Shown: positions 30,047 to 38,939 of the stretch, piece by piece
Layout: every line of letters starts with the position of its first letter
How positions within the stretch are numbered: position 1 is the stretch's first letter
Assembly (NCBI GenBank): GCA_945907755.1
Contig: CAMDTN010000005.1
Coordinates: forward strand, 16,140-80,139
Length of the DNA: 64,000 nucleotides
Origin: Singulisphaera sp. GP187
GTDB lineage: Bacteria > Planctomycetota > GCA-002687715
Direction of reading: 5' to 3'
Position numbers and translations under genes: made by a program
Notes under the pieces: model-generated
Told to the model about the DNA's origin: nothing
Database searches by the model: none
Seen by the model: the letters and a program-made list of their open reading frames with translations, nothing else

Positions 30047-30967
30047 ATGAACTCCACCGAATCGGGCACACCTTCAGCACCCGCGGGCCGCAAGCCCGAA
30101 TGGTTGAAAGTGCGCTTGCCCGGTGGTGCCAATTTCGAGCGCATCAAGGCGCTACGCCAAAGCCTGAAGCTGACCACCGTGTGCGAAGAAGCGCGCTGCC
30201 CCAATGTGGGCGAGTGCTGGTCCAAGGGAACCGCCACTTTCATGTTGCTCGGTGACACCTGCACCCGCGCGTGCCGTTTCTGCAATGTGAAGACTGGCAA
30301 CCCGCAAGGGCGCATCGACCACGACGAACCCCAGCACCTCGCTGACGCCGTGCGCACCATGGAACTCAGCTACATCGTGCTGACCATGGTCGACCGCGAC
30401 GACCTCGCCGACGGTGGAGCCGCCCATGTGGCCGCCTGCGTGGATGCCGCCATTGCCGCAACGCCAAAGTTGAAAGTGGAAGTCCTCAGCGGCGATTTCC
30501 GTGCCAACCCCGCTGCGCTGCAAACCGTGGCGCTCAGCGGCGCGTCGGTGCTTGCCCACAATGTGGAAACCACGCGCGCCCTTACGAAGCGTGTGCGCGA
30601 TGGCAAGTCCACCTACGACAACTCGCTTGCAGCGTTGCGGCTGTACAAGCAACTCGCTCCGGCCAAGCTGACGAAATCCAGCATCATGCTGGGCTTGGGC
30701 GAAAGCGCCGACGAAGTCCGCGAAACTCTGCGCGACCTGCGCAGCGCCCAAGTGGACATCGTCACCCTCGGGCAGTATTTGCAGCCAACACAGTGGCACT
30801 TGCCGGTAGCCGAGTACATTCACCCGGACGTGTTCGCTGCTTGGCGCATCGAAGCGGACTCCATGGGGTTCTTATTCTGCGCTTCAGGCCCGTTGGTGCG
30901 CTCCAGCTATCGCGCCGGAGAGCTGTTCGCCGAAAGCTGGTTGCGTGATCGCGAAGGAGCGAAGTGA
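30047..30967 (+). CDS. lipA: Lipoyl synthase
   Basis: CEEARCPNVGEC and CTRACRFC are the two LipA Fe-S Cys clusters. Confidence 0.9.
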   Translation: MNSTESGTPSAPAGRKPEWLKVRLPGGANFERIKALRQSLKLTTVCEEARCPNVGECWSKGTATFMLLGDTCTRACRFCNVKTGNPQGRIDHDEPQHLADAVRTMELSYIVLTMVDRDDLADGGAAHVAACVDAAIAATPKLKVEVLSGDFRANPAALQTVALSGASVLAHNVETTRALTKRVRDGKSTYDNSLAALRLYKQLAPAKLTKSSIMLGLGESADEVRETLRDLRSAQVDIVTLGQYLQPTQWHLPVAEYIHPDVFAAWRIEADSMGFLFCASGPLVRSSYRAGELFAESWLRDREGAK

Positions 30968-32076
30968 TGCCTGCTGAGTTGCTTGGAGTATTCGGCAAGG
31001 GCGGAGTGACCAAAAAACTCCCCGTGCCCGTACTGACCCGCGAAGAACTGTTGGGGCTGCACCGCAACATGGTGCGCACGCGCAAGCTCGACGAGCGCGG
31101 CATGAAACTGCAGCGCCAAGGGCGTATCGGCTTCTATGTGCCTTCGTTAGGCGAAGAGGCCGCACAAATTGGCAGCGCCGCAGTGCTGCAAGGGAGCGAT
31201 TGGGTTTCACCCAGCTATCGCCAGCCTGGTGTTGCACTGGCGCGCGGCGTCACTCCGGTGGAAATGTTCGACAACTGCTTCGGCAACAGCGGCGACGCTG
31301 CCAAAGGCCGGCAGATGCCCGTGCACTACACCTTTCGGTCGCGCAACTTCATCAGCATTGGTTCGCCCATCGGCACCCAAATCGCCCACGCGACCGGCGT
31401 GGCCATGGCCATGCGCATCCGCGGCGAGAGCAAGCTGTGCATGACATACTTCGGTGACGGCGCCACCAGCAGCAACGATTTCCACACCGGCCTGAACTTC
31501 GCTGGCGTGTTCCGTGCGCCTTGCGTGTTCGTTTGCATCAACAATCAGTACGCCATTTCGCTGTGCGTCACTGGGCAAACCAGTTCCGGCACCATCGCTG
31601 ACAAGGCGCGCGCGTACGGCATGCCGGGCATGCGCGTAGATGGCAACGATGTGTTGGCGGTGCTCGCCGCCACACGCCTCGCCGCAGACGCAGCGCGCAG
31701 CGGTGATGGCCCCACGCTGCTGGAACTGTTCAGCTTCCGCATGGGCCCGCACAGTTCCAGCGACGACCCTTCGCGCTATCGCTCCAAGGAAGTTGAAGCA
31801 GAATGGGCCGCCAAAGACCCTATCCAGCGCTTCGAGCAGTGGCTGTTGGCACAAAACACTTTCAGCGCGAGCGAACTCGCTGCTGTGCACACTGCGGCTG
31901 AAGAAGAAATGGCCGAAGCCGCCAAGCTATCCGAGGCCAAAGCGCCACCGTCCAAAGACACGCTGTTTGAAGATGTGTACGCGGTAATGCCCGCTTCGTT
32001 GCAACGCCAGCAAGCTGCGCTACGCGCCGAGGGCGATGCCCACGCGCAAGACCGCAACGCTGCCTTCCCCCTCTGA
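30964..32076 (+). CDS. 2-oxoacid dehydrogenase E1 component alpha subunit (TPP-dependent), copy 1
   Basis: Contains the TPP-binding motif [18 protein letters not shown]. Start overlaps the lipA stop as ATGA. Confidence 0.85.
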
Positions 32077-32078
32077 GA

Positions 32079-36951: not shown

Positions 36952-38148
36952 ATCGCGGGCGCGGCGTGCGCGGTTGCGCGCGTCGTCCATCAGGCGCTCG
37001 ATGCCTGGCACCTGCGCTGCTTGCACCACGCCAGATTCGAAGCTGAGCACAGCGCGCACGATGGCGCCAACTGTGCCTTCGTAACGCGTCAGCGCTGCTC
37101 GCGCCGATTCCGCCAAGGGCAGTGCCTTCAGGAAGTCCACGCGCTGCTCGCCCTGCGCTGGCGCCACCGCCAACAGCAAGCCCGCGAACAACGCTTCCGC
37201 CGCCTCCGTGCGCGAAGTGATGCCGCCGAGGATTTCGCACAAGCGCGCTCGCGCCAGCACGCCTTCCGCTTCCGGCGCTGGTTCGTCGTCGCCCGGCATG
37301 AGTGCCAGCAGCGTGCACATGGCCGCGAGGCGCTCGCTACCCACTGCATGAATGGTTTCGCCCAATGTGCCCACTCCCCCCGCGGGCGGTTCGGGAATGG
37401 CGCGCAACACGCGCAGCAGCAACGCCGGATCGGTGGCCAGCACATTCGCCGCAGCGCTGACATCTGCGATGGCGCGACCCTTCAGCAACAGCAGCAGCGA
37501 CAGCACTGTGGACCGGCTGACTGCAGGTAAGGAACAAGTCAGGATCGATGGCCGACTGAACCAGAAGCCTTGGTAGCCAGCGAAGTTCAGGTCTAAGCAG
37601 CGCTGATGATGCTCTTGCGTTTCCACTTTCTCTGCGATCAAGTGGAACGATGAGTACTTGTGAGCGTGGCGCGCAAACTCACTCGCCTCCATGCTTTGAA
37701 TGTCCAGTTTTAGAATGCGCACGAATTCCAGCAGGCGCAGATTGCGTTCACTTTCGATGAAGTCATCCAGCGCGAAGGTGTGGCCATCAGCAGCCATGCG
37801 GCGCAACGCCAGCATCACATCTTCGTCGCAGCAAACATCTTCGAGAATCTCGAACACCACTTTTTCGCGTGGAAACAGCCTCGGGAATTCACAGAGCACA
37901 CCGTTCCGCGTGAGGTTGATGAAGGCCGTGCGTCCGCTGGTCAACGCGGGCAGACCGATTTCCACCAACGCCGCCAACATCACGGCTAACGAGGCCTGGT
38001 CGCCGTCGCTGAAATCCGCAACATTGGATTTACCTGAGCGGTACAGCAGCTCGTAACCAACCAGCCCCTCACCGCGCCCATAAATGGGCTGGCGCCCAAC
38101 ATAGACCGTCGTTGTTGCTGGCAATTTGGCGGCTGCTGAAACCTGCAC
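36937..38148 (-). CDS. EAL domain plus HDOD domain signalling protein (YuxH-like, likely degenerate c-di-GMP phosphodiesterase)
   Basis: N-terminus VGRQPIYG...GYELLYR plus an EILE motif indicates an EAL fold. The C-terminal half is HDOD-like. GTG start. The 3' end overlaps lpd convergently by 15 nt. Confidence 0.6.
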   Translation of the reverse strand: MQVSAAAKLPATTTVYVGRQPIYGRGEGLVGYELLYRSGKSNVADFSDGDQASLAVMLAALVEIGLPALTSGRTAFINLTRNGVLCEFPRLFPREKVVFEILEDVCCDEDVMLALRRMAADGHTFALDDFIESERNLRLLEFVRILKLDIQSMEASEFARHAHKYSSFHLIAEKVETQEHHQRCLDLNFAGYQGFWFSRPSILTCSLPAVSRSTVLSLLLLLKGRAIADVSAAANVLATDPALLLRVLRAIPEPPAGGVGTLGETIHAVGSERLAAMCTLLALMPGDDEPAPEAEGVLARARLCEILGGITSRTEAAEALFAGLLLAVAPAQGEQRVDFLKALPLAESARAALTRYEGTVGAIVRAVLSFESGVVQAAQVPGIERLMDDARNRARRARDLLLT

Positions 38149-38309
38149 GGGTCGGCTCCTTCCGAAATGACGATCACCCCGCGGGCGCGCGGGGCTTCAT
38201 CCGGCATGGTCGGATTCCGCGTCGCAGACTTTTGCCACACGGCGCACCGTGTGCGCCTCGACCACGCGCCGCGTGCGCCTCTACCGCGCACCCACTAAGA
38301 TGGCCCGCG

Positions 38310-38939
38310 ATGCCCCTTTGCGTTCGCGATCTTGGACTTCTCCCTTACGCGCAGGCCCACGAGGTGCAAGTGCGCGCCGTGGAGGACCGCCTCGCCGAGC
38401 GCTGCAGCGACACACTGCTGCTGCTGGAACATCATGCAGTCATCACACTCGGGCGCGGCACCAACCCCGCGAATGTGAAATCCGCCGGAGACATTCCCGT
38501 GGTGCCTTGCGAGCGCGGTGGTGATGTCACTCTGCACGCGCCGGGGCAATTAGTGGGCTACTTCATCCGCAGGCTGCCCGATGGCGCAGGCGGGCTGCAT
38601 CGGCACTTGCGCGACATCGAAGAAGCGCTGCTGCAAGTCTGCGCGCTGCACGGGCTGGAAGGGCAGCGCTGCTCGGGTGCCACCGGAGTGTGGGTCGGTG
38701 ATCGCAAGCTCGCTAGCATCGGCATCGCCTGCAAACGCCATGTCACCTGGCACGGGTTTGCACTGAATGTCAACACCGACCTTGCGCTGTTCGAGCGCAT
38801 CAACCCCTGTGGTTTCTCTGCTGGGGTCATGACCACTTTGGAGCGCGAAACGCAGCGCACCTTGGACATGCGCGAAATCAAGGCCCAGTGCGCTGAAGCC
38901 TTGGCACAAGTCTGCGGAACTACTGTTTTGCTCGCATGA
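38310..38939 (+). CDS. lipB: Lipoyl(octanoyl) transferase
   Basis: LLLEHHAVITLGRG and ERGGDVTLHAPGQLVGY are LipB signatures. ATG at 38310. The upstream extension of the ORF to 38112 is rejected. Confidence 0.8.
   Translation: MPLCVRDLGLLPYAQAHEVQVRAVEDRLAERCSDTLLLLEHHAVITLGRGTNPANVKSAGDIPVVPCERGGDVTLHAPGQLVGYFIRRLPDGAGGLHRHLRDIEEALLQVCALHGLEGQRCSGATGVWVGDRKLASIGIACKRHVTWHGFALNVNTDLALFERINPCGFSAGVMTTLERETQRTLDMREIKAQCAEALAQVCGTTVLLA

Follow-up and report, generated by a model that had tools for sequence, protein, structure and literature searches.

Lipoate-dependent 2-oxoacid dehydrogenase complexes contain an E1 component that is regarded as invariably α2β2, with a tyrosine conserved in its active site. 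In the Bacillus/Geobacillus-type pyruvate dehydrogenase (PDH; pdhA-pdhB-pdhC-pdhD, structure 1W85), separate α and β chains form a heterotetramer-type E1, E2 carries lipoyl, peripheral subunit-binding (PSBD) and catalytic domains, and the genes run in the order α-β-E2-E3. An operon from Singulisphaera sp. GP187 shares all of these features but differs in having a second E1α gene, α′, between E2 and E3, a leucine in α′ in place of Geobacillus stearothermophilus (Gst) Y102α, and flanking lipA and lipB genes. The operon lies in a 64,000-nucleotide stretch of contig CAMDTN010000005.1 (positions 16,140–80,139; assembly GCA_945907755.1), referred to here as the window, in whose numbering coordinates are given. 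The best solved relatives of both α copies (260–272 bits) are E1b proteins of branched-chain 2-oxoacid dehydrogenase (BCKDH), from human (1DTW) and Thermus thermophilus (1UM9), which have in common with both copies the thiamine diphosphate (ThDP)/Mg ligands, the His291-Ser292 pair and overall length. However, both solved enzymes contain Tyr113, which α′ lacks, and the window copies score below NCBIfam equivalog cutoffs. Here we report that α′ belongs to a separate, widespread family that carries a Tyr→Leu signature, always lacks a dedicated β gene and in some genomes is the single α of the operon. This family, which goes beyond what the first-pass annotation of the window had described, spans phyla, including Planctomycetota, Polyangia and several uncultured lineages, and changes the picture of E1 as a fixed unit.

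The listing of open reading frames (ORFs), together with Pfam and NCBIfam scans, places lipA, E1α, E1β, E2, E1α′ and lpd in that order on the + strand, with the coordinates and identities that the first-pass annotation, made from the letters of the DNA alone, had assigned. The string opens with lipA, encoding lipoyl synthase (30047–30967; TIGR00510, 382.8 bits, cutoff 310), followed by a canonical-type E1α of 370 amino acids that starts at GTG 30964 or ATG 30967 and ends at 32076 (Pfam E1_dh, 4.4e-94), and by the single β gene of the window (32079–33080; Transket_pyr and Transketolase_C). The 426-amino-acid E2 acyltransferase (33096–34376; Biotin_lipoyl, E3_binding [PSBD] and 2-oxoacid_dh) has one lipoyl domain, with Lys43 in MTDKA, a PSBD and the catalytic motif DHRVVDG. 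It precedes the 371-amino-acid E1α′ (34415–35530; E1_dh, 1.5e-87) and lpd, which encodes the E3 dihydrolipoyl dehydrogenase (35527–36951; TIGR01350, 519 bits, cutoff 409). The gene set for a lipoate-dependent 2-oxoacid dehydrogenase complex is thus complete (E1α, E1β, E2 with lipoyl Lys, PSBD and DHRxxDG, and E3). As no further E1, E2 or E3 gene was found across the 64 kb, and both α genes are intact and 47% identical, the view that two diverged α genes accompany a single β/E2/E3 set in one packed string holds.

The coupling of these genes had been attributed to ATGA and GTGA overlaps. We find 4-nucleotide GTGA overlaps at lipA/α and α′/lpd and no ATGA, the other junctions being gaps of 2, 15 and 38 nucleotides. 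No promoter-like site was found in the operon region, including the E2/α′ junction, and terminator-like matches are not enriched in the region (13 versus 11.4 expected from shuffles), with none in the E2-α′ spacer; an internal promoter or terminator between E2 and α′ was therefore rejected. The search for riboswitches and other RNA elements in and around the operon returned no Rfam match at E ≤ 0.1, and GC content is flat over the region. The 38-nucleotide E2-α′ spacer (34377–34414, + strand) contains a GC-rich near-palindrome, CGCGCGCGCCGCGCGC, which is not a conserved element, since relatives have only 0–12 nucleotides there (L001, L004 and L088; L numbers denote individual loci). In some other loci that carry both α and α′, E2 is longer (521–571 amino acids) and has two lipoyl-domain matches (L001, 6423–7988; L004, 6281–7996; L040, L046, L058 and L064).

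Both α genes are under purifying selection and neither is decaying. The two proteins align end to end with only 3 gap positions, and each matches nearly the full E1_dh profile (positions 2–296 of 300 for α, 2–298 for α′). Both contain the ThDP/Mg2+ motif GDG-X26-NN, which begins at residue 163 of α (counted from ATG 30967) and residue 168 of α′. The catalytic His of the outer loop (human H291, Gst H271) is kept as GPHSSSDD in α and GGHSSSDD in α′ (H267-S268). Against the 85%-identical relative L087, the ratio of nonsynonymous to synonymous substitution rates (dN/dS) is 0.113 for α and 0.100 for α′, compared with 0.074 for β, 0.142 for E2 and 0.072 for lpd; these figures are approximate because dS is near 1. 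The closest database proteins are from uncultured Planctomycetota, with one 99%-identical copy in GCA_947490305.1. The α′ protein is nearer to the α′ of other genomes (up to 85% identity) than to the α encoded beside it.

How do the two α types differ? We aligned 106 α sequences from surveyed loci with three solved references (human, Thermus and Geobacillus) and numbered residues by human BCKDH. At position 113, every α that lies directly upstream of β has Tyr (57/57, references included), while 48 of the 49 α′ sequences have Leu and the remaining one has His. Position 87 is Gly in 47 of 49 α′ sequences and V/I/L/M in nearly all Tyr-type sequences, with Ala in two solved references and Gly in two archaeal sequences. 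The corresponding residues of the window proteins are V59 and Y85 in α and G63 and L89 in α′. Weaker family differences occur at positions 163, 191 and 220. All catalytic residues other than the signature positions are identical between the families, with D193, N222 and an aromatic residue at 224 retained in all 106 sequences. Among the 25 closest α′ orthologs, F61, G63 and P87-A88-L89-R90-E91 (window α′ numbering) are invariant. Tyrosine loss is not unique to the α′ family, since in L029 (10553–15835) the dual operon precedes another E1α-β-E2 set whose α is more distant (35% identity), and this third α has Ile at the Tyr113 position (VAPVIRN) together with a GHAEHDD loop.

Gene order follows the signature. 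In our survey, one genome per GTDB species was scanned, yielding 80 loci in which seven gene families were mapped by tblastn. Throughout the 106 α sequences, the Tyr113 type stands directly before β and the Leu113 type never does; in the window, β begins 2 nucleotides after the stop codon of α, and β is directly downstream of α′ in 0 of 49 loci. Instead, α′ is found after E2, before lpd or alone. The α-β-E2-α′-lpd arrangement, whose conservation in relatives the first-pass annotation had left to be checked, is present in 23 loci: 19 from the survey, including the window, plus L085, L087, L088 and L089. Seventeen of the 19 are from Planctomycetota (again counting the window), and the others are L029, an unclassified bacterial metagenome-assembled genome (MAG), and L067, a Thermoplasmata archaeon. 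Context look-ups for α′ homologs of 99%, 85%, 66% and 56% identity all returned lipA-α-β-E2-α′-lpd.

Each α type also occurs without the other. Five loci have the canonical order lipA-α-β-E2-lpd-lipB with α only (L031, L034, L037, L062 and L073). The permuted order lipA-β-E2-α′-lpd-lipB, with α′ only, is found in L002, L013, L047, L048 and L053 and, with inserts, in L044 and L069, where α′ is ∼5 kb from lpd. As α′ is the sole α in such operons, it is probably catalytically sufficient with β. In L002, a syntenic relative of the window's lineage, a remnant of α upstream of β was looked for and rejected, as the 200-nucleotide lipA-β spacer has no similarity to α. The β-E2-α′ order would be most simply explained by loss of α from the dual layout, and the canonical order by loss of α′. 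In Polyangiaceae (L006, L012, L033 and L057), α′-lpd(-lipB) is detached from lipA-α-β-E2. Solitary α′ genes lie among unrelated genes in L016 and L007, and in the Thermoplasmatota MAG JBHELM01 such a β-less α′ (L023) coexists with a complete E1, encoded by the canonical lipA-α-β operon of a different contig (L084). Scans of the neighbors of the Polyangiaceae α′-lpd units and the orphan α′ genes found no hidden β or E2. A search of the accessible literature for a two-α operon, an orphan E1α family or the α′ family returned nothing relevant.

A neighbor-joining tree, with the distant third α of L029 as outgroup, groups the Leu type and the single His variant in one clade and places all three solved enzymes on the Tyr side; Tyr-type sequences do not form a single clade. 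The planctomycete subclades in one half of the tree have mirror counterparts in the other. Across 19 dual genomes, the pairwise-identity matrices of α and α′ correlate with r = 0.93, and within-genome α/α′ identity is 44–56%. The two genes have thus diverged together; the duplication is ancient, and both copies have been passed on as a pair.

The two paralogs also share a C-terminal feature. Both window proteins end in the motif [A/G/E/K/H]-F-P-L-COOH (AAFPL in α, 32062–32073; GAFPL in α′, 35516–35527), which comes after a variable acidic or Gly-rich tail and is found on both paralogs of the same genome. This terminus occurs in Planctomycetota, Bdellovibrionota, Verrucomicrobiia, Eisenbacteria and some archaeal loci (including L001, L004, L005, L009, L038, L041, L058 and L061–L065). 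In the three solved E1α chains (human, Thermus and Geobacillus), the aligned C-terminal portions lack it, and Polyangiaceae α proteins have His/Gly-rich C termini instead (…GHGGGH). The FPL terminus may be a docking peptide.

What would loss of the tyrosine mean for the enzyme? In Geobacillus E1p, the E1 of PDH, the Y102α hydroxyl is wedged 2.9 Å from the thiazole sulfur and 2.8 Å from a terminal-phosphate oxygen of ThDP, and a slight clash would be expected between this residue and the methyl group of lactyl-ThDP (PMC2663715). Tyr113 has been described as conserved and as essential to a cofactor-modulating conformational switch (PMC4102578). The human Y113F substitution raises kcat and increases paracatalytic inactivation, and the corresponding position of E. 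coli E1p is occupied by His (PMC2663715). The tyrosine that contacts the thiazolium sulfur and the terminal phosphate is present in α and absent from α′. Judged by alignment to these enzymes, α′ therefore lacks a residue that forms part of the acyl side of the active site and by which the reactivity of the cofactor is tuned. Residue 87 probably lies in the same pocket, because it co-varies with residue 113.

On balance, we favor the interpretation that a single lipoate-dependent 2-oxoacid dehydrogenase complex is made from the operon and that its E1 can take up either α or α′. In this proposal, α would be the canonical subunit that binds the ThDP diphosphate, and α′, an ancient paralog lacking its own β, would assemble with the operon β, which would link it to the E2 core and E3 that α also uses. 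With every Mg/ThDP ligand and the catalytic His kept in α′, Leu in place of the tyrosine, and Gly in place of V/I/L/M at position 87, the cell would make two E1 forms, α2β2 and α′2β2, and possibly some mixed tetramers. Both forms would dock on the same E2. They would differ in cofactor reactivity and/or in room for the substrate acyl group, altering specificity or kinetics, and the substrate range of the single complex would thereby be widened or split.

On E1, the PSBD binds the β2 face at the two-fold axis, and exchange of the α subunit would therefore be expected to leave docking on E2 unaffected. Binding of the E2 PSBD on the two-fold axis has been described for E1 (PMC2663715). When β columns of α′-only operons were compared with those of α-type operons, no residue co-varied with the type of α served, which fits one generic β that accepts either α.

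Which substrates are involved? Compared with solved structures, α scores 272 bits with 1um9 (Thermus BCKDH), 260 with 1dtw (human BCKDH) and 258 with 1w85 (Geobacillus PDH), and α′ scores 271 with 1dtw, 267 with 1um9 and 230 with 1w85. Thus α′ leans slightly to BCKDH (271 versus 230 bits) and α is even (260 versus 258). TIGR03181 (PDH_E1_alph_x) is the best model for both, and both fall below its cutoff of 411.35 bits (α, 388.9; α′, 373.4). Since both copies score similarly, we set aside an assignment to PDH or BCKDH from PDB and NCBIfam scores as not decisive, and the branched-chain versus pyruvate/acetoin split raised in the first-pass annotation is conjectural. The recurrent acyl-CoA dehydrogenase neighbor described below is a weak hint of branched-chain activity and of acyl-CoA products larger than acetyl-CoA.

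Several points weigh against an E1 with interchangeable α subunits. The α and α′ families are strictly discriminated by positions 87 and 113 only, bootstrap support for the α′ clade is 34%, and mean identity between the families (46%) is little lower than within α′ (51%) or within the Tyr type (49%). A single origin of α′ therefore rests mainly on the two-residue signature and gene position. The searchable literature yielded no biochemical data on any α′ member, and a second β may be encoded elsewhere in the genome, outside the loci inspected. Finally, co-transcription and tight coupling imply that α and α′ are probably made together, which fits a mixed tetramer equally well.

Such a mixed tetramer could be obligate: in dual-layout genomes, E1 could be an asymmetric αα′β2 with two non-equivalent sites, for example a protected Tyr site and a more reactive Leu site. 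We regard this as possible though unlikely. Wherever the dual layout occurs, α and α′ belong to one compact operon and are presumably produced at the same time, they co-diverge at an equal rate (r = 0.93), and they carry the same FPL tail in the same genomes. In addition, communication between the two active sites of E1p has been proposed, although the mechanism may not apply to E1b (PMC2663715). However, each type also serves as the sole α (α in L031, L034, L037, L062 and L073; α′ in L002, L047 and L053), and homotypic tetramers must therefore work, which argues against an obligate αα′β2.

It is improbable that α′ is an equivalent copy, kept for dosage or robustness, whose Tyr→Leu and Gly substitutions are close to neutral. 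The similar scores of both copies against BCKDH and PDH E1α structures and the same NCBIfam model would fit such redundancy, as would the identity of all other catalytic residues. Nonetheless, a neutral duplicate would not be expected to hold both substitutions near-invariant across several phyla, set against Tyr in 57 of 57 α sequences, or to be retained over such evolutionary distance at dN/dS ∼0.1, and the human Y113F change has measurable kinetic effects (PMC2663715).

We give equally little credence to the idea that α′ does not use the operon β, either because its partner is encoded elsewhere or because its function is linked to E3 and not to E1 catalysis. The preference of α′ for the position immediately upstream of lpd, with a GTGA overlap in the window, the separate α′-lpd(-lipB) unit of Polyangiaceae away from lipA-α-β-E2, and the orphan α′ genes all speak for it. 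Yet the pyrimidine-binding half of the ThDP site is missing from an isolated α subunit, operons with α′ only hold exactly one β and no other α, α′ is ∼5 kb from lpd in L044 and L069, and one past event may account for the split in Polyangiaceae. We rejected two further possibilities, named by the first-pass annotation as fatal to its reading: decay of one α copy, and a recent tandem duplication that left identical active sites. Neither has anything in its favor beyond the duplication itself, and the evidence against them comprises intact ORFs of 370 and 371 codons, 47% identity, dN/dS ratios of 0.11 and 0.10, conserved cofactor and catalytic motifs, two differing residues in the active-site region, old co-divergence and orthologs of each copy in many genomes (α′ up to 85% identical to other α′).

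The genes around the operon are partly conserved. Divergent from lipA is a DUF72 gene (28957–29859, − strand; Pfam DUF72, 2e-43) whose 5′ end is approximate: its start is probably near 29859, because orthologs have 292–300 amino acids and the longest ORF (467 amino acids, to 30360) would overlap lipA. This start leaves a divergent intergenic region of ∼190 nucleotides upstream of lipA. A divergent DUF72 neighbor is also present in L085, L088, L089 and the P0002 contig. Farther out, genes for a 706-amino-acid HEAT-repeat protein (26836–28956, − strand) and a 479-amino-acid LVIVD-repeat protein (40757–42196, − strand) flank the locus and are syntenic in L085 and the P0002 contig.

On the other side, a signaling gene of the EAL-HDOD type (36937–38148, − strand) is convergent with lpd and divergent from lipB. 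Its position between these genes is as the first-pass annotation had it, but the window protein matches EAL only below threshold (28.9 bits, cutoff 31.3) and has no HDOD match. The HDOD assignment thus rests on the L088 protein in the same position, which is 35% identical over its full length (E = 4e-64) and matches both EAL (42 bits) and HDOD (38 bits). The position is occupied also in L085, L087, L088 and L089. The octanoyltransferase gene lipB (38310–38939, + strand; 209 amino acids; NF010925, 181.7 bits, cutoff 155) most likely starts at ATG 38310 rather than at TTG 38112, the start of the longest ORF, because family models align only from residue 62–75 of the long form. Thus lipA and lipB do bracket the operon, as had been proposed, but lipB is cut off by the minus-strand gene and is not co-transcribed with the operon in the window. 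In more distant relatives, lipB directly follows lpd (L002, L004, L005, L036, L058, L061 and L065), and the signaling gene was therefore probably inserted between them. L088 and L089 have an extra gene for a 905-amino-acid esterase between lpd and lipB.

Downstream of lipB is an acyl-CoA dehydrogenase gene (39036–40250, + strand) with Pfam Acyl-CoA_dh N, M and C domains and no NCBIfam equivalog at cutoff. Such a gene is a repeated neighbor of the operon in Planctomycetota: it adjoins the operon in L085, L002, L003, L005, L058, L061 and L065 and has the same position in L087, L088 and L089. The block of EAL-HDOD (− strand), lipB and acyl-CoA dehydrogenase genes (36937–40250) is kept across the lineage of the window (L085, L087, L088 and L089), with 4HBT thioesterase and isochorismatase genes after it.

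If the operon does make a single complex with two kinds of α, E1 would be modular, with the half that holds the cofactor diphosphate swappable while the β/E2/E3 scaffold stays. Both α families currently receive the same names, creating a systematic annotation problem, and metabolic reconstructions of Planctomycetota, Polyangia and several uncultured lineages could change. The α′ family would also be a natural experiment on the Tyr113 conformational switch. A bolder proposal, which we advance only tentatively and consider rather doubtful, is that Leu113/Gly87 α′ proteins are an unrecognized class of β-less E1α that plugs into the β/E2/E3 of another E1 and gives it a catalytic property that no characterized E1 has. 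This property could be a new substrate class, admitted by an enlarged non-polar pocket beside C2 of ThDP, or an obligate asymmetric αα′β2 with one protected and one unprotected site.

How does this arrangement compare with known cases of component sharing? Mammalian PDHA1 and PDHA2 are likewise two alternative α subunits for a single β/E2/E3 set, with one PDHB, and they share the same active site. PDHA2 is reported to compensate for silenced PDHA1 in testis (PMC12377818). However, the mammalian pair arose by a recent retrogene duplication and has separate loci and different expression times, whereas the window pair is ancient, co-transcribed and differs in residues of the active-site region. 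The dual-activity complex of Bacillus subtilis resembles the proposed complex in that 2-oxoacids of more than one class are handled on a single E2/E3 scaffold. In 1983, Lowe, Hodgson and Perham reportedly described this single complex as having both pyruvate and branched-chain activity. There, one E1 does both jobs, whereas the two α subunits of the window could divide them. Lastly, the E3 encoded by lpd is common to the PDH, 2-oxoglutarate dehydrogenase (OGDH) and BCKDH complexes and is a precedent for sharing of components; in the window operon, sharing would extend to β and E2, with α alone being swapped.

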